This document shows, piece after piece, positions 4,859 to 40,064 of a DNA stretch of 64,000 bases. Position numbers and translations under genes: made by a program. Below the pieces are notes generated by a model, which saw nothing but the letters and a program-made list of their open reading frames with translations, did not search any database and was not told the DNA's origin. Within the stretch, counting starts at the first letter, position 1; each line of letters begins with the position of its first letter. Origin of the DNA: a virus; the IMG/VR virus record IMGVR_UViG_3300042397_002774, positions 1 through 64,000 of that record. One strand, written 5' to 3'.

Positions 4859-5434
4859 TTACTCTGCCAAGTACAATCTATTGTAATTGTAGAGTGCGAC
4901 TGGGTTTTCATCAACTATCAATTCATAATTATCCATAACATGCTCATAAATGGCACTTAATGGTTCATTAATAACTTCACCCACTAATTGAGAGAAATAA
5001 TTGTTAGATAAATTTACTGTTTCTTGTAGTGTTCCTGGTAGTCCACAATACGCTGCTTCGCTTACCTCACTAATAAACATACCACTGTAGAACCCATTTA
5101 ACTGGTGTTCATTCATGAATTGATCAGCATTACACCATATTGCAATACATTCTTTGTCCTTTAACAATGATACTGTTGAGCTATCAATAGCATAAGCATA
5201 ATTAAATCGTTGTGGGTATATAGATGATTTAGCATCACTAAACATACCTACAGCAAATAATCCACTAGGCGAGCCATGTCCCATCATTATGATGCGATCA
5301 TGTTCCTTGATTAATTGTGTTAATTGATCTTTACTAACACCACCATTAACAATAATGGCATCGTTAATATTACTGTATATCGGCTTTAAAAAGTCCGTTG
5401 TTGGATCCGATGGGTGAATAATTAAATTTTTCAT
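4859..5434 (-). CDS. hypothetical protein, possible caspase/gingipain-like His-Cys fold
   Basis: MMGHGS and IWCNA motifs; fold is inference. Confidence 0.5.
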   Translation of the reverse strand: MKNLIIHPSDPTTDFLKPIYSNINDAIIVNGGVSKDQLTQLIKEHDRIIMMGHGSPSGLFAVGMFSDAKSSIYPQRFNYAYAIDSSTVSLLKDKECIAIWCNADQFMNEHQLNGFYSGMFISEVSEAAYCGLPGTLQETVNLSNNYFSQLVGEVINEPLSAIYEHVMDNYELIVDENPVALYNYNRLYLAE

Positions 5435-5471
5435 GACATAAAGATAGGCAAATTACTTTGCCCATCCACAT

Positions 5472-5621
5472 TTAATTCATTATTCCTATTATGTTTCGCC
5501 TCCACCACTTTGCAAAACGTGTGTTTGGGTTTTTAGTAGTTATTGATTCTCCAACTACTAACCCTATTGTAAACAGTGCTGATAGTAAACACAATAGTAT
5601 TAAAATTTGAAATAATTCCAT
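5472..5621 (-). CDS. small membrane protein (49 aa, not in ORF track)
   Basis: MELFQILILLCLLSALFTIGLVV...; same MELFQIL start as the truncated ORF beginning at nt 28. Confidence 0.55.
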   Translation of the reverse strand: MELFQILILLCLLSALFTIGLVVGESITTKNPNTRFAKWWRRNIIGIMN

Positions 5622-24215: not shown

Positions 24216-24223
24216 AAAAATTG

Positions 24224-24614
24224 TGGAGGTGAAGGGAGTCGAACCCTTGTCCAAATGCGGATTTAATAAATCTCGTTCACAAGCTTAGTTAGTTTTTCTT
24301 AACTAACAAAATATGAAGTTTGATGTATGTGGGAATCATACTTCCAAATTACCTGGTTGTGGAATTATTTTATGAGGGCTCCACCCTAAGACCCCCTTTG
24401 TAAACACTTCTGTTCCTAGGTTATATGTGCACCGACCCGAGTTGGACTAGGCAGCTACTGCGTAATCCGCACCAACGAATGCCATAGCATCTTCGAAGGT
24501 CATTGTAGATAATTCTACGTCATTTATTGTTCGATAGGTATTTACGGATTTCCATCTAACCCGGCTTGCATCAACTATACCAACTCATCGCACCTGTCAA
24601 AACCAGGCACCCCC
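24224..24614 (-). ncRNA. ssrA: tmRNA
   Basis: 5' GGGGGTGCCTGGTTTTGACAGG; 3' T-arm GGGTTCGACTCCC and CACCTCC-A with G3:U pair; internal tag ORF ending YAVAA*. Confidence 0.92.
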
Positions 24615-24619
24615 ATGTG

Positions 24620-24943
24620 TTAAATAACTTCTGCTTTTTTCTTTCGTTTTTTGCCTTCTAATATTTTTTGAATATCAGCACACAATTCATATTCTTCTAA
24701 TTTGATCAAATCATCCATACAATTACTTAACAATTCTTTGTATTGTGATTTCTCAATATTAAATATCATCCCACTTGTGTCTTTGAATGTAATATCAAAT
24801 ATATCTATTCGATCTTTACCTCGTTTATGAGCACTGAGAACACATCTAACCATTTTAAGTATTAAATCACTATCCCTATCCCTCATCATTTGAAGGAATT
24901 GCCGATTACTTTCTAACATTAATACCCAACAGGCCATATCCAT
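24620..24943 (-). CDS. hypothetical protein with C-terminal UVR-like motif
   Basis: LIKLEEYELCADIQKIL; start moved out of the tRNA; paralog of 27564-27863. Confidence 0.65.
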   Translation of the reverse strand: MDMACWVLMLESNRQFLQMMRDRDSDLILKMVRCVLSAHKRGKDRIDIFDITFKDTSGMIFNIEKSQYKELLSNCMDDLIKLEEYELCADIQKILEGKKRKKKAEVI

Positions 24944-24951
24944 AATTATTG

Positions 24952-25035
24952 TACCAGGAGCGGGAATCGAACCCGCACTCGCGTTGGCGAACAAGATTTT
25001 AAGTCTTGCGTGTCTACCTATTCCACCACCCCGGC
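24952..25035 (-). tRNA. tRNA-Leu(TAA)
   Basis: cloverleaf, anticodon loop CTTAAAA, long variable arm. Confidence 0.92.
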
Positions 25036-25150
25036 ATGTGCAACTTTTAAAATACCCTATGAGTTGCCAACATCGCCGACCTACGATTCGGAGAGTTTCA
25101 TGTTGCCAGAGGAGTTACTCTGTCTTCGTCGTTCCACGTTCGAACGATTG

Positions 25151-25309
25151 CTGTAGGGGAAGGATTCGAACCTCCACGCGGCGATTCAACAAATGACACT
25201 TTTGCTAGCTAGCCTGTGGTCAACCCATTATCATTTGTCTATCTCGAACTCCGCACCCTCGAGACGGGAGGGCATGTCTGCCAAGCGTACGCCTTTTCAC
25301 CACCCTACA
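25151..25309 (-). ncRNA. atypical tRNA-like RNA (159 nt) with D-loop insert and 80-nt variable arm
   Basis: acceptor TGTAGGG/CCCTACA+G; T-arm GGAGG-TTCGAAT-CCTTC; anticodon arm CCCTC-CCGTCTC-GAGGG. Confidence 0.75.
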
Positions 25310-25324
25310 ATTCCAGCTTAATAA

Positions 25325-25534
25325 CTATTGTTTGAAATGTCTTTCAAGCGCGGCAATTTTATCTTCAGCATCAACTAACATTGTAAGCGCTTCTTCAGCG
25401 TTGTTGTAGAAGTCTTTTGTTGAATGATCACCAATACCAGCGGCGTGATAAGACAATAGATCCAAAGTTAATAGAGCTTTTGTTTTGTCAGCTATTGCTG
25501 AAGCCATAAGCATGTCGTATAATTCTTTTTTCAT
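25325..25534 (-). CDS. conserved phage hypothetical protein
   Basis: AAGIGDHS motif in a helical hairpin. Confidence 0.7.
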   Translation of the reverse strand: MKKELYDMLMASAIADKTKALLTLDLLSYHAAGIGDHSTKDFYNNAEEALTMLVDAEDKIAALERHFKQ

Positions 25535-25612
25535 ATGTGGTTAATTTACAATTTTCTTTTTGCCCGTCCAACATTTTTTCTAAATTTCCTTATGTCAAAT
25601 AAACGTTGCACG

Positions 25613-25686
25613 TGGGCCTGGTAGGAATCGAACCTACTACCTTCACATTATGAGTGTGCCGCTCTAACCGATTGAGCTACAGGCCC
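25613..25686 (-). tRNA. tRNA CAT (probably Ile2/lysidine; Met not excluded)
   Basis: GGGCCTG acceptor, loop CTCATAA. Confidence 0.88.
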
Positions 25687-25692
25687 TTGTTG

Positions 25693-25764
25693 AGCTCCCA
25701 CTCGGAATCGAACCAAGTTATCATGATTACAAGTCATGCGCATCGCCTGCAATGCTTTAGGAGC
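25693..25764 (-). tRNA. tRNA-Thr(TGT)
   Basis: loop CTTGTAA, cloverleaf. Confidence 0.88.
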
Positions 25765-25773
25765 ATTAATATG

Positions 25774-25858
25774 CGGAAAGACAGGGATTCGAACCCCAGA
25801 TACCTTTCAGTATGCCGGTTTTCAAGACCGGTGCATTCAACCACTCTGCCATCTTTCC
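25774..25858 (-). tRNA. tRNA-Ser(TGA)
   Basis: loop CTTGAAA, long variable arm, G73. Confidence 0.92.
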
Positions 25859-25913
25859 TGGAGTGCAGTGGGAGCTAGCTTCCCTGTGGTTACTGCACAT
25901 TTTATCCACTTTG

Positions 25914-25985
25914 TACTCAGTACGGGATTCGAACCCGTATTACATCCGTGAAAGGGATGTGACCTAACCCTTAGTCGAACTGAGC
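25914..25985 (-). tRNA. tRNA-Glu(TTC)
   Basis: loop CTTTCAC, cloverleaf. Confidence 0.92.
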
Positions 25986-31779: not shown

Positions 31780-32066
31780 TATTTTTTTAATTTATTTGTT
31801 GTTGTTGTAACCCAATTCCCACCTAAATCTTCTGCGTTGTAATGAAGACCTTCGTTTCCATTCTGTCCTATAATATCCATTCTACGTTCTAATTCTTCTT
31901 CATTCCAGCTTTCTTGGTCATGACCTGAACAAGGGGGTGTTTTAGAGGTATCATTTACTTCTCCCAATTTTTCTTTCAATGTATCCCATTGTTTTGGAGT
32001 AAGATTATACTCATGTACACCTTCTGTAAATCCCTTTAACCAAATTACAAATTCTTTACTTGTCAT
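31779..32066 (-). CDS. hypothetical protein
   Basis: ORF. Confidence 0.6.
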   Translation of the reverse strand: MTSKEFVIWLKGFTEGVHEYNLTPKQWDTLKEKLGEVNDTSKTPPCSGHDQESWNEEELERRMDIIGQNGNEGLHYNAEDLGGNWVTTTTNKLKK

Positions 32067-33360
32067 CTTCAGCTTTATTTAAGGTTGGTAATGTTGTTTT
32101 GCTTAGCTTAGGAAGAGGAATTTCTTTAGTAAAATTAGCATCTAATATTTCAACTAATTTTTCACCCATTTTTTCTAAACTAAAATCATTTCGACAAATG
32201 TACGACTGTCTCTTTGCTTTTTCAACATATTCATCATAATCTGCATAAACTGCTTTCAATGCTAATGAGGCTTGGTTATAGTCTGGAGTAAACCATTTTG
32301 ATTCTGCTATCAACATGTTTTCAACAACAGCACTCTTATCTATTGGTTTTATTTCACCACCAACAAACACACTAAATTCTTTACTTAAGAAATCAGTATG
32401 TCCACTCCATCCACTAACAACAATTGGTTTTTGTGCTTGGGTGAATTCAATTAATGGTCTACCATATCCTTCACCTTTAGTTAAGCTTAACATTGCTTTT
32501 ACTTTAGAATGATTATACAAACCATTCATTTCATCGTCTGTTAATTCTCCATGAAGTAAATAAATGTTTGGTAAATCACCATCAACCATTGATTTAACTT
32601 CTTCTATCTTAGCAATCATTTGGTCTCTATCCATAATTGAATAATTACCACCATTTACTTTTAAAATAAGTCCCGGTTTGATTTTTCTATTTTTAAAGGT
32701 TTCAAGAAATGCTTTAATGGTTCCACCCATGTTTTTTCTATCTTCTCCAAAACTACCTTGTAACCAATGACCAACAACTAAAAAATTGAAATGCTCAGGA
32801 ATACTTTTTAATATATCATCTAAAGTTTCATCAACTTTATTTGTTTTTTTATAAATTTGAGTATCAACTCCTTCAAACAATACTTCTACTGGTGCTGTTG
32901 TTTCAATTATCCCAACCACTTCTTCAGGATTATCTTTTTTACGTTGTTCATATTTTGAATTTAAGAATACCTTTTTAGAATGATTACATGAAGTTAATAC
33001 TAAATCCATTCTATTACACCCTTCAATCCAAGTAGTAGCACATAAATCTGTTTCAATACCAGCAGTAATACCAATATTATATTTACCTACTTTTTGAAAT
33101 TCATTAGGTACTGTAATTTGGATCCAAATATCAGGAACATTTTCTAATTTATTATTACTTAGTTGGATACAATCAATAATTTTTTTATGATCAGGATTTG
33201 ATGGTTTTAGAAATCCAAATGGAGTACTACCCCATCTTTGTGATAGGATTTTAACTTCATATTTTTCTGAGTTGATAAGTGCTTTAACTACATCTCTCGA
33301 TCTTGCTCCATATCCACTAAATGTATCTATTGGGCAACTAATTGCTATAACTGGTTTCAT
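32056..33360 (-). CDS. GT-B (GT4-like) glycosyltransferase
   Basis: SGYG, EDRKN, GEGYGRPLIE. Confidence 0.85.
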   Translation of the reverse strand: MKPVIAISCPIDTFSGYGARSRDVVKALINSEKYEVKILSQRWGSTPFGFLKPSNPDHKKIIDCIQLSNNKLENVPDIWIQITVPNEFQKVGKYNIGITAGIETDLCATTWIEGCNRMDLVLTSCNHSKKVFLNSKYEQRKKDNPEEVVGIIETTAPVEVLFEGVDTQIYKKTNKVDETLDDILKSIPEHFNFLVVGHWLQGSFGEDRKNMGGTIKAFLETFKNRKIKPGLILKVNGGNYSIMDRDQMIAKIEEVKSMVDGDLPNIYLLHGELTDDEMNGLYNHSKVKAMLSLTKGEGYGRPLIEFTQAQKPIVVSGWSGHTDFLSKEFSVFVGGEIKPIDKSAVVENMLIAESKWFTPDYNQASLALKAVYADYDEYVEKAKRQSYICRNDFSLEKMGEKLVEILDANFTKEIPLPKLSKTTLPTLNKAEDDK

Positions 33361-33362
33361 AA

Positions 33363-34817
33363 CTATTCTGCTATTAAATAAGGATTATAATGTTGTGGTT
33401 GATCAGGGGTTTCAATAGGAATCAATTCATATGTGTATCTTGGAGTCCATTTTTTAAATGTTTCTTCAATACCATCTATAACATTTTTAGACATCAATCT
33501 AGCTGACATCATTGATTCATCTGATGTTACCCATTTGTAAGCTGCTTGGCCTCTTTCTTTAAAGTTTTGAGGTGTTATTGTTTTAAGACCATATACTACT
33601 GAAATTTGTTTAGCAATATCAAATGGTTCAGCTCTATCATCAAATATGTAAGGTGTTGGTTGAGAACCTACTAAACTTAAATTGTTTGGAAATACGGGGA
33701 ATGCCCACCCACCACAGTTTTTATATTTACCTCTATGGTTGGAACCAAACTCTTCAGTGAATTTAATCCACTCACCTTTTTCATCTTCAAATCTCATTTG
33801 GTCTTGCATTCCACCTGTTACTGTAGCTATAATAGGTTTACCACACATCATAGATTCAGTTAAACTTAAACCCCATCCTTCATTACTACTAGGTAACACA
33901 GTTGCATCACAAGCATTGTAAAGTAAATTCATTACTTGTGCTGGTTGTTTGCCTTGAGAGAAGATAATGTTTCCACCTTCTTTTCCAAAGATCATATCTC
34001 GCACTGCTTCTAAATCAGTACCATGCTCATCTTTTACATGAGTATGCATTACCAAACAAGTTTTACTTGCTTGTTCTTTGGTTAATTGAGAACGAAATTT
34101 ATTCCATGCTAACATTAAATCAGGTACTGATTTGCGTCTTATGTTTCTAGCATTATATAATAATGTAAAATCATATTTTTTATCACCAAACAATTGTTTT
34201 TTAAACTCTTGTAAAGCTAAATATTCAGGTTTATCTTCAGTGATAGGGAAGAAAATATTTTCATTTATTCCATGAGGAACATATTTAATTACTTTTTCTT
34301 CAGCTGCCTCCCCTAATACAACCCTATTAATGTTTTCTGTTTGTTTACTAATTGCTAGTAAAGCATCACATGACTCGTAGTATGATTTATTATACATTGG
34401 GTAAGGAATACTATCCCAAATGTTTAAATAAATAAGAGGCATTTGTTTTCTTATCTCATGCTCATTTTGAAATAACCAAATCCAATAACGAGGATCTGTA
34501 AAGATCATCATTGCATCTGGTTTTTCATTTTTGATGATTTGGCGTACAAATTCTATAGTGCCGTATCCTTTTACAGGATAAATAAATACACTAGAATCTT
34601 CAATACCAGCGTGTTCGTTAGTACTAGCACAGATATCTAATTTTTTACCTTCTTCAGGGTGATTTACACCACCTCCTAAATTGATCCAATTAAAATGATG
34701 AGCGGTACCCACTACTATTTCTCTAGCCATAGTGGATATACCGCTCGTCATTCTAATATCATCACAAAGTAATAGGATTTTCTTTCTATCCTCTTGTTTA
34801 ATATAACCTTCTTTCAT
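33363..34817 (-). CDS. GT-B (GT4-like) glycosyltransferase
   Basis: RNIRRK, NEGWGLSLTESMMCG. Confidence 0.85.
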   Translation of the reverse strand: MKEGYIKQEDRKKILLLCDDIRMTSGISTMAREIVVGTAHHFNWINLGGGVNHPEEGKKLDICASTNEHAGIEDSSVFIYPVKGYGTIEFVRQIIKNEKPDAMMIFTDPRYWIWLFQNEHEIRKQMPLIYLNIWDSIPYPMYNKSYYESCDALLAISKQTENINRVVLGEAAEEKVIKYVPHGINENIFFPITEDKPEYLALQEFKKQLFGDKKYDFTLLYNARNIRRKSVPDLMLAWNKFRSQLTKEQASKTCLVMHTHVKDEHGTDLEAVRDMIFGKEGGNIIFSQGKQPAQVMNLLYNACDATVLPSSNEGWGLSLTESMMCGKPIIATVTGGMQDQMRFEDEKGEWIKFTEEFGSNHRGKYKNCGGWAFPVFPNNLSLVGSQPTPYIFDDRAEPFDIAKQISVVYGLKTITPQNFKERGQAAYKWVTSDESMMSARLMSKNVIDGIEETFKKWTPRYTYELIPIETPDQPQHYNPYLIAE

Positions 34818-38444: not shown

Positions 38445-40064
38445 TTACATACCAAATCCTGACATTCCACCCATGTCATCTGCCTTCTTTTCATTAGGTT
38501 TTTCATGGATAACACATTCAGTCATTAGTAATGTAACCGCAGCGGATGCTGCATTTTCTAAGGCGCAACGTACCACCTTAGTAGGATCAATGATACCTGA
38601 TTCAAATGCATCTACTACTGTTTCACCAGTAATGTTTGGAACCATGGTTTTGGTGTTTATTAAGCGGTTATACCACACATTAACTTCTTCACCTGCATTT
38701 TTAAGAATTTGGGTAAATGGAGATTCACAAGCTTTAAATACAATAGAACCACCCATACCAAAATCATTAACACCACGTTTACTAATAGAATTTCTAGCAG
38801 TTAATAATGCTACTCCAGCTCCAGGTAAAATACCTTCTTCAAGTGCTGCCTTAGTTGCTTGAAGGGCATCATCAATACGATCTTTTTTCTCTTCAATCTC
38901 AATTTCATTACCACCACCAACATTGATAATAGCAACTCCACCAACCATTTTACCTAAACGCTCTTGATATTTTTCAATTTCATAAGGTGTAGTATCTGGT
39001 TTATCCATTTGAGTTTTAATACTTAAGATACGCTCTTCAATCTTATCAACATTACCTTTACCATCAACGATTGTAGTAGTATCTTTACCAATAGTAGCAA
39101 CTCTAGATTTACCTAACCAGTTGATATCTAGTTTAGCTAAAGTCATACCTTTTTCAGATGAAACTACTTGTCCACCAGTTAATGTAGCAATATCTTCCAA
39201 AATTGCTGTTCTACGATCCCCAAATTCAGGAGCTTTAACAGCACATACTTGCAATACACCTCTTGCTTTGTTCATTACTAGTGTAGCTAATGCTTCACCA
39301 TCAATGTCTTCAGCAATAATTAAAAGAGACTTACTTTCAGTAGAAACACGTTCAAGTAATGGAAGTAAATCCTTAACTGCACTAATACGCTTATCATAAA
39401 TTAAAATATAAGGGTCATTTAATGTAACTTGCATTGAATTGTTATCGGTTACAAAATAAGGTGATTTATAACCTCTATCAAATTGCAAACCTTCAACAAC
39501 TTCCAATGTTGTTTCACCTGTACGAGATTTCTCTACAGTTACTACTCCATCTCTACCTACTTTATCAATAGCTGTAGCTACAATATTACCAATTTCTTCA
39601 TCACCATTAGCTGATAATGTAGCAATTTGTTTAATTTGTGCTTCATCTGTAATATCTACAGACATTGCTTTTAATTCAACAACTACTTCCTTAACAGCCT
39701 GTTCAATACCACGTTTTACCTGAGTAGCATTAGTTGAAGAGTAAGCTGTTGCTTGCAACGCTTGAGTTGCAATTGAGCGAGCCAATACTGTTGATGTGGT
39801 TGTACCATCACCTGCTTGATCAACTGTCTTTGATGCTGCTTGTTTAATAACAGTTGCAGCCATGTTTTCAATTGGATCTTCCAATGTAATTGATTTAGCT
39901 ACAGTAACACCATCTTTAGTAGATGATACTTGACCATATTCTTTTTCAATTAACACATTACGTCCAAAGGGACCCATTGTTGTTGCTACAGCTTTGTAGA
40001 CCTTGTCTACACCTTCCTGTAGTTTTTCTTTTGCTTCGCGTTCGAAACTGATTATTTTACTCAT
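38445..40064 (-). CDS. groL: chaperonin GroEL
   Basis: GDGTTT, FDRGYKSPYF, GIIDPTKV, GGM tail. Confidence 0.96.
   Translation of the reverse strand: MSKIISFEREAKEKLQEGVDKVYKAVATTMGPFGRNVLIEKEYGQVSSTKDGVTVAKSITLEDPIENMAATVIKQAASKTVDQAGDGTTTSTVLARSIATQALQATAYSSTNATQVKRGIEQAVKEVVVELKAMSVDITDEAQIKQIATLSANGDEEIGNIVATAIDKVGRDGVVTVEKSRTGETTLEVVEGLQFDRGYKSPYFVTDNNSMQVTLNDPYILIYDKRISAVKDLLPLLERVSTESKSLLIIAEDIDGEALATLVMNKARGVLQVCAVKAPEFGDRRTAILEDIATLTGGQVVSSEKGMTLAKLDINWLGKSRVATIGKDTTTIVDGKGNVDKIEERILSIKTQMDKPDTTPYEIEKYQERLGKMVGGVAIINVGGGNEIEIEEKKDRIDDALQATKAALEEGILPGAGVALLTARNSISKRGVNDFGMGGSIVFKACESPFTQILKNAGEEVNVWYNRLINTKTMVPNITGETVVDAFESGIIDPTKVVRCALENAASAAVTLLMTECVIHEKPNEKKADDMGGMSGFGM

Follow-up and report, generated by a model that had tools for sequence, protein, structure and literature searches.

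We describe here an unusual transfer RNA (tRNA)-like gene on the minus strand of a stretch of viral DNA of 64,000 nucleotides (nt), positions 1 to 64,000 of the IMG/VR virus record IMGVR_UViG_3300042397_002774, which we refer to throughout as the window. An earlier note on this DNA had drawn attention to a giant tRNA-like RNA with a hairpin insert in the D loop, an 80-nt variable arm and a non-canonical anticodon loop, and reading of the sequence confirmed all of the described fold features on the minus strand. Comparison with homologs identifies the element as a member of an uncatalogued, conserved tRNA-derived RNA family of the Bacteroidota and their phages, the job of which is probably other than ordinary decoding.

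The window copy forms a full cloverleaf in which the acceptor stem of 7 base pairs (bp) and the D, anticodon-type and T arms are all intact (Table 1), and the core nucleotides of tRNA (U8, A14, G18 G19, U54 U55 C56 and A58) are present along with all four arms. Its D loop is 21 nt long and holds A14, the 12-nt hairpin (in RNA letters, AGGCGUACGCUU) and GGCAGA. Positions 34-36 (25265-25263) read GTC, with C33 before them and U37, then C38, after them; a canonical tRNA would have U33 and a purine at position 37. The variable arm begins with a base stem, (U)GCGG/CCGC(G), which is followed by the 3-bp stem CGA/TCG and an internal loop, GAUAGA / GAA; beyond this loop lie the helix ACAAAUGA/UCAUUUGU and an apical loop with a small hairpin. 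The GACAAATGA/TCATTTGTT helix of the earlier note is present in the 80-nt variable region, together with the GCGG/CCGC base stem. As a single sequence the RNA has an unremarkable folding energy (z = -0.91) and the case for an RNA therefore rests on the comparison of homologs.

Table 1. Parts of the tRNA-like RNA gene, and the RNA-gene cluster that holds it, in window coordinates
Feature	Position	Strand	Remarks
Whole tRNA-like RNA gene, position 1 to G73	25151..25309	-	159 nt; covariance model R1 153.6 bits, E 5e-44
Acceptor stem, 5' strand TGTAGGG (U1, G2 ...)	25303..25309 (25309-25303)	-	pairs with 25152-25158
U8 G9 and class-II (Leu-type) D arm	25274..25302	-	3-bp stem GTG/CAT; loop with A14 and GGCAGA
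D-loop hairpin insert AGGCGTACGCTT (variable expansion)	25283..25294	-	12 nt, by folding; precedes GGCAGA
Anticodon-type arm, stem CCCTC/GAGGG (5 bp), loop CCGUCUC	25256..25272; loop 25267-25261	-	
Variable arm, exactly 80 nt	25176..25255 (25255-25176)	-	all three helices covary
Invariant apical motif GGGUUGACCAC of variable arm	25216..25226	-	11 nt; in all four variants found via the T arm
T arm GGAGG / UUCGAAU / CCUUC and acceptor 3' strand CCCTACA (25158-25152)	25152..25175	-	
Discriminator G73 (25151) and encoded C74	25150..25151	-	CCA not encoded, next bases AA
Phage RNA-gene cluster	24223..25985	-	tRNA-Glu, Ser, Thr, Met, 69-amino-acid open reading frame, tRNA-like RNA, tRNA-Leu, transfer-messenger RNA (ARAGORN, Rfam)

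When the T arm and the 3' strand of the acceptor stem were matched exactly against viral contigs, seven loci with four distinct variants were found, in which the arms covary and several blocks are identical. A pattern made of three internal blocks matched 108 viral contigs, and the same pattern without its GTCTC block added only three further true members, all three of which have GUC, such that homologs are found on about 110 viral contigs. For an alignment of 65 distinct sequences RNAalifold gave the cloverleaf plus its long arm, with compensatory changes in 25 of 33 pairs. From the family alignment we built a covariance model, R1, with the window sequence included in its seed, as the earlier note had suggested for the phage homologs, and this model found one full-length match in each of 100 phage sources, and 118 bacterial matches. 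The match of the window copy spans model positions 1-149, and independent members score 107-157 bits.

Amongst 80 distinct phage homologs, standard pairs occupy 97.6% of cells, as against 76.8% in shuffled and 43-59% in slid controls, and changes on both sides are seen in 26 of the 33 pairs. The covarying pairs take in six of the seven in the acceptor stem, four of the five in the anticodon stem and four of the five in the T stem, as well as N10:N25, which is GC in 33 rows, AU in 29, GU in 6, UA in 4 and CG in 2. Three helices of the family's variable arm covary; its internal loop is conserved, and its apical loop holds the invariant GGGUUGACCAC. The arm measures 30-130 nt in an RNA of 107-212 nt in total and exceeds that of any tRNA known to us three- to fivefold. 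Since homologs are widespread and the compensatory changes so numerous, we conclude from the alignments that the window element is neither a chance fold nor a pseudogene, and the preserved pairing on which the earlier note had relied to argue against decay is borne out across the family. No sign of splicing was seen for either the insert or the arm, and the latter covaries and carries its invariant 11-nt motif.

Neither Rfam 15, including its tRNA model RF00005, nor ARAGORN at default settings calls the window element, even at E <= 10, which is what had been anticipated; the short bacterial forms described below are likewise missed by ARAGORN and the Rfam tRNA model. No homolog was found in GenBank phages by blastn with three different family members, and no description of the family in full-text literature searches. 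Fremin et al. 2023 (PMC10690425) report a candidate, DNAVirus_1850, with 27 IMG/VR sites of which one is called tRNA-Asp; it may belong to the same family.

Several other interpretations of parts of the sequence were tried and set aside. In its intron mode ARAGORN reports a tRNA-Ala(AGC) with a 67-nt intron; we reject this call because it breaks the conserved anticodon arm, placing a G.A mismatch in the anticodon stem and discarding the best-conserved, covarying CCCUC/GAGGG stem with its GUCUC loop. A pairing of GUGGU (positions 8-12) in the 5' part with ACCAC in the arm motif does not hold, as position 10 covaries with position 25 and not with the invariant motif. The TTGACC of the arm is not followed by the conserved -10 box that would go with a -35 promoter box, and the AUG of an AUG-GGU-UGA mini-frame in the apical loop is not conserved. 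Pairing between GAC in the arm motif and GUC in the anticodon-type loop is geometrically conceivable; both triplets are invariant, and the short forms keep GUC without the motif.

A number of positions do not vary; frequencies were taken from 80 distinct phage rows and 109 bacterial rows, rows that lack a letter not being counted. U1-A72 occurs in every member with letters at that pair (79 phage rows), and G2-C71 throughout the bacterial members; of 79 phage rows 76 have G2-C71 and the remaining three A-U. U8, G9, U11 and G12 are invariant (G9 in 108 of 109 bacterial rows), as are the U11-A24 pair and the T-loop residues U54 U55 C56 and A58. Within the anticodon-type loop each of G34, U35, C36, U37 and C38 is present in 80/80 phage members; in the bacterial members U35, C36 and C38 are each found in 109/109 and U37 in 107/109, with C37 in the other two. 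Position 37 is U or C in all family members but one (L112), G34 is present in every long form, with A34 or U34 in a few bacterial short forms, and nearly all members have pyrimidines at positions 32-33, with U33 dominant in bacteria and C33 occurring in 33 of the 80 phage members. The odd loop to which the earlier note pointed is thus real and family-wide.

At the 3' end one phage row is cut off; the other 79 all have G73, as do 109/109 bacterial rows. C74 is unpaired yet invariant (79/79 phage, 109/109 bacterial), and positions 75-76 vary, as they do in the ordinary tRNA genes of the same phages. The GGGUUGACCAC motif, or a near variant of it, also occurs in bacterial members that were found by the model rather than by the pattern, and is lacking in the short forms. 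The D-loop hairpin of the window copy, correctly noted before, is not a feature of the family: the D loop is enlarged in 33/80 phage members compared to about 2/104 bacterial members, its sequence differing among lineages, so that it is better described as a variable expansion almost confined to phage copies. The window copy carries the full family set, namely U1-A72, G2-C71, G73, C74, U8, G9, G34 U35 C36 U37 C38 and GGGUUGACCAC.

The body of the RNA is that of a bacterial class II tRNA of the Leu type (RF00005), with which it shares the 7/5 acceptor/T geometry, U8, the 3-bp D stem, the GGYAGA D loop (as in the neighbouring phage tRNA-Leu), a base-paired variable arm, a canonical T loop and a C74 that is encoded without CCA. 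It differs from this class in an arm of 30-130 nt rather than at most about 25, in U37 and often C33, and in the combination of G73 with a GUC loop. Its conserved nucleotides fit another identity. Five strong determinants of aspartate identity are conserved in evolution, G73, G34, U35, C36 and C38, and G2-C71 is a minor one (PMC9976931); all six are present in the window RNA and constitute its likeness to bacterial tRNA-Asp. The differences from tRNA-Asp are the class II body, the giant arm, the absence of a purine at position 37, coexistence with normal tRNA-Asp and the first base pair. G1-C72, which helps to place the 3' end in aspartyl-tRNA synthetase (AspRS), is strictly conserved in bacterial tRNA-Asp (PMC9976931), whereas U1-A72 stands here. 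Amidation by GatCAB is permitted by U1-A72 and blocked by G1-C72 and by an extra D-loop nucleotide (the antideterminant U20A) (PMC1635274). In its conserved nucleotides, then, the family joins an aspartate identity set to a tRNA-Asn-type first pair and a U37 that is unfriendly to decoding.

The earlier note had read the long arm and G73 as serine identity elements, a reading which the conserved nucleotides do not support, fitting aspartate instead. The corresponding explanation, of a serine-accepting tRNA that seryl-tRNA synthetase (SerRS) charges through the long arm and G73 and that acts by missense, inserting Ser at Asp codons, or in regulation, appears to us very improbable. A long base-paired variable arm, G73 and G2-C71 would suit it, yet SerRS ignores the anticodon loop, leaving the fixed positions 34-38 unexplained, and the arm is broken by internal loops after 5 bp. 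U11-A24 is a pair of the Leu type rather than the Ser type, and the D arm too is Leu-type. The precedent for such a molecule is the allo-tRNAs (Mukai et al. 2017, PMC5389517), irregular tRNAs of bacteria and phages with long variable arms, serine identity and often a GUC anticodon, which have been proposed to be missense suppressors or regulatory RNAs. Those RNAs have a 12-bp acceptor branch, divided 8/4 or 9/3 between the acceptor and T stems (PMC5389517), whereas the present family is 7/5, with covariation in both stems, and has a much longer arm and a conserved anticodon loop.

A search of the species-representative genome collection with the three-block pattern gave at least 120 stretches, and at least 120 Bacteroidota genomes carry a homolog. 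Among the matches listed all are from Bacteroidota, the carriers including Pedobacter, Chitinophaga, Saprospiraceae, Cyclobacteriaceae, Cytophagaceae, Flammeovirga and others, and by taxonomy they fall into the orders Chitinophagales, Sphingobacteriales, Cytophagales and Saprospirales. R1 finds the RNA in 14 of 151 genomes sampled across the Bacteroidota, with a fifteenth copy (in G047) cut by a contig end. The bacterial copies stand apart from other tRNA genes, many are followed by terminator-like hairpins, and they are often arranged in tandem: Flammeovirga pacifica carries five long copies in tandem, at intervals of about 197 nt, and numerous loci of Pedobacter and Cyclobacteriaceae have a short form (107-118 nt, without the GGGUUGACCAC loop) directly upstream of a long form. 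Loci with arrangements of these kinds are L135:5234-5341 and 5417-5561, and L240 (G003:C1:4115688-4116630). All four of the carrier genomes tested also have normal tRNA-Asp, with 2-4 matches that are 83-91% identical to a phage tRNA-Asp(GUC).

In 88 of the 120 bacterial loci among the matches listed, a gene of 157 amino acids (aa) belonging to the Lrp/AsnC family lies divergently upstream of the RNA. Its best NCBIfam match is AsnC, at 167 bits against a cut-off of 227 and hence below it, with Lrp at 47 bits. With a threshold for orthologs of E <= 1e-30, the regulator is present in 17/17 carriers and in 1/16 apparent non-carriers; in this sole exception the RNA lies directly beside the regulator, cut by a contig end, so the final tally is 18/18 carriers against 0/15 non-carriers. 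The regulator does not accompany the phage copies. Elsewhere around the bacterial RNA gene, a FadD-type acyl-CoA ligase (22 loci) or the tRNA m7G46 methyltransferase TrmB (15) lies downstream on the same strand (for example L128:5516-7201 and L152:1706-2428), and sufBC lies beyond the regulator. In three carrier genomes (G001, G002 and G011) asnS is 6-10 kilobases (kb) from the RNA gene, and in G075 a class IIb synthetase gene, LysRS-like by size only, abuts the RNA; this closeness is perhaps chance synteny, as the genes are far apart in other carriers.

The virus record as a whole is 160.9 kb long, has about 32% G+C and is estimated to be 94% complete. It encodes a DNA polymerase, DnaB, a ribonucleotide reductase, a ligase and a GroEL-like chaperonin (window 38445-40064, minus strand; phrog_5725, E 2e-148), and two glycosyltransferases are found at window 32056-34817. 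A terminator scan of the RNA-gene cluster places a terminator-like hairpin at 24215-24192. The transfer-messenger RNA (tmRNA) of the cluster (window 24223-24614, minus strand; Rfam 103.5 bits) has an unusually long tag, DVELSTMTFEDAMAFVGADYAVAA, and closely related tags occur next to the tRNA cluster in about 17 related phage loci. A 115-nt spacer (window 25036-25150, minus strand) separates the tRNA-like RNA from tRNA-Leu and is mostly missing in a relative, L004. A conserved open reading frame (ORF) of about 79 aa, without Pfam or PHROG matches, has its end immediately upstream of the RNA in 29 phage loci (for example L006:2568-2807, plus strand); in that place the window has an unrelated ORF of 69 aa (25325-25534, phrog_1811).

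This setting bears on the most serious of the rivals, which is that the RNA is a working elongator tRNA-Asp isoacceptor that reads GAY codons, with the giant arm and D-loop insert as expansion segments tolerated by the ribosome. Such a decoder would perhaps be conditional, through the AsnC-like regulator, and would be carried by the phage like its other tRNAs. The tRNA scaffold is indeed complete, with all core tertiary nucleotides, GUC, G73 and C74 kept, the gene sits within phage tRNA clusters, and the bacterial copies can be tandem, five of them in one genome. Across the 160.9-kb record, furthermore, neither a second copy of the RNA nor any tRNA-Asp was found, and GAT is a heavily used codon in this phage. 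Against these points stand the invariance of U37 and the frequency of C33, the U1-A72 pair in place of the G1-C72 that bacterial tRNA-Asp strictly has (PMC9976931), and hairpins at the elbow, in the D loop, in 33 of the 80 phage members. The arm is several times longer than that of any known decoder, its invariant loop motif is not explained by decoding, and a dedicated regulator of the amino-acid type is unusual for a tRNA gene. Normal tRNA-Asp genes are present in all of the carriers tested, and of 69 phage loci with tRNA genes, 16 have a normal tRNA-Asp(GUC) beside the RNA, a frequency much like that of the other tRNAs, from which it follows that the tRNA-like RNA is not a stand-in for tRNA-Asp. 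On balance we regard decoding as the less favoured explanation, yet a serious rival.

The tRNA-Asn-type first pair and the AsnC-like regulator raise another possibility, that the RNA is an off-ribosome carrier for the synthesis of asparagine, on which AspRS loads Asp and GatCAB amidates it, the Asn then being released or handed on. In the host the AsnC-like regulator would set expression, and the phage copy would raise the supply of Asn for an AT-rich, Asn-rich proteome. Both the general scheme and this phage version of it we consider rather unlikely. In its favour are an invariant U1-A72, which is the GatCAB determinant (PMC1635274), and an intact aspartate identity set; the linked regulator, which co-occurs with the RNA, matches AsnC best, and the carriers have GatB (14/14) and AsnRS (18/18) and no AsnA. 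A phage proteome with 6.5% Asn, as against 5.5% in bacterial flanking genes, is weak evidence in the same direction. The likeness to the tRNA-Asn of the indirect pathway, which employs a non-discriminating AspRS and GatCAB, extends to U1-A72 and G73 (PMC1635274) and to the presence of GatB in the hosts, but it ends at the anticodon, GUC rather than GUU, at the enlarged D loop, at GatB that does not track the RNA and at the AsnB that most carriers have.

GatB is present in 126 of the 151 sampled Bacteroidota and the RNA in about 15, so that GatB does not follow the distribution of the RNA; within the compared genomes the two are never close together, and the conserved neighbours include no gat gene. 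An AsnB-type asparagine synthetase scores above its curated cut-off in 11/14 carriers, AsnA is absent from carriers and non-carriers alike, and there is no extra AspRS, with three class IIb enzymes in carriers and non-carriers alike. None of GatB, AsnB, AsnA, AsnRS and the number of class IIb synthetases separates carriers from non-carriers. The D loop is of the enlarged class-II type, with an added hairpin in phage copies, and may deter GatCAB, for which one supernumerary nucleotide in that loop is an antideterminant (PMC1635274); the regulator, moreover, falls below the AsnC cut-off. The genome comparisons thus lend the asparagine carrier no specific support.

The distribution of the gene also speaks to the proposal of the earlier note that this is a non-decoding tRNA mimic, such as a decoy for anticodon nucleases. 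The conserved, structured look-alike part of that proposal stands, and an aminoacyl donor and a protein scaffold, also named there, are candidate roles; the nuclease decoy, like serine identity, does not fare well. As a decoy or sponge, the RNA would use its YGUC loop to bait a colicin-E5-type anticodon nuclease, or would titrate AspRS or another tRNA-binding protein, and so shield the real tRNAs in infection. Nucleases of the colicin E5 type recognise YGUN, and Y33 G34 U35 is kept even where U33 has become C, in an RNA that is borne by phages next to tRNAs and a tmRNA. A primary role of this kind is nevertheless very unlikely: the RNA is first of all a chromosomal gene, present in at least 120 genomes of the Bacteroidota and accompanied by a terminator of its own and an AsnC-like regulator, and the invariant C36, U37, C38, G73, C74 and U1-A72 and the conserved arm would go unexplained.

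On a tree of 166 rows the label of phage or bacterium switches only 5 times, compared with about 55 in shuffles, and these few switches suggest few captures by phages and long retention since, under selection and inside their tRNA clusters. Within the phages the acceptor end, positions 34-38 and GGGUUGACCAC have remained fixed and U33 and the D loop have drifted, a pattern that fits recognition by proteins (a synthetase and a partner that binds the arm) better than it fits the reading of codons. Around the phage copies lie small ORFs of various kinds together with terminase, exonucleases and an RNase H-like protein; as no conserved phage protein accompanies the RNA, its partners presumably come from the host. 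Genes for a class IIb synthetase, an Asn synthase and GatB are all absent from the phage record, so that any such partners must be host-derived.

The explanation that we prefer, at about even confidence, is that the RNA is an aspartylatable, non-decoding tRNA look-alike that phages captured from their hosts. It would be cut out and given CCA like a tRNA, and host AspRS would recognise it through G73, G34, U35, C36 and C38. It would not be an ordinary decoder, because of its U37, its frequent C33, its arm of 30-130 nt and its D-loop hairpins, and the arm with the invariant GGGUUGACCAC loop may be the handle for a putative host partner. During infection the phage copy would supply the RNA free of the host's AsnC-type control and, charged or uncharged, it could serve as a carrier, donor, sensor or sponge. 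A narrower version is a dedicated non-decoding aminoacyl carrier. The ordinary AspRS would load it with Asp, U37, the giant arm and the weak first pair would exclude it from the ribosome, and a partner holding the GGGUUGACCAC arm would then convert the amino acid or pass it on; the concrete form is amidation to Asn by GatCAB. In that version the AsnC-like regulator would control the RNA, and phages would have stolen it to reprogramme the pathway; we think this version as a whole unlikely.

Several observations weigh against an aspartylatable, non-decoding look-alike. U1-A72 may weaken aspartylation, since bacterial tRNA-Asp strictly keeps G1-C72. Apart from a purine at position 37, nothing that a decoder needs is missing; phages keep the RNA amid decoding tRNAs, and it resembles tRNA genes in being multi-copy. 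The arm has no identified partner, and the phage neighbourhoods offer no conserved candidate protein. The co-occurrence with the regulator is confounded by the common ancestry of the carrier orders, although the back-to-back layout of RNA and regulator across four orders is harder to dismiss.

Stable RNAs of another kind are already familiar from a phage tRNA cluster, the T4 species 1 and 2 RNAs (rnaC and rnaD), which are about 120-140 nt long and of which rnaC ends in a T-arm-like hairpin. They have no full cloverleaf, GUC loop or shared motifs by eye, and kinship with the present family was rejected as blastn gives no similarity. tRNA-derived RNAs that retain portions of the tRNA fold and work beyond ordinary decoding, some of them aminoacylated, include tmRNA, the bacterial Y RNA YrlA, the tRNA-Other of B. 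cereus and the cell-wall tRNA-Gly of S. aureus; the family differs from these in keeping all four arms, with its extra domain at the position of the variable arm, and in having no Rfam match.

Few tRNA-shaped RNAs work outside ordinary decoding, and tmRNA, YrlA and the cell-wall tRNAs each opened a field. The family reported here mixes the signals of three tRNA types, is abundant, occurring in at least 120 bacterial species from four orders and on about 110 phage contigs, is tied to a regulator of the amino-acid type and has been kept repeatedly by phages. It marks a blind spot of tRNA finders in the genomes of the Bacteroidota and their phages, and an account of its function might bring to light a novel use of aminoacylation, or a novel means by which phages adjust the translation or metabolism of their hosts.

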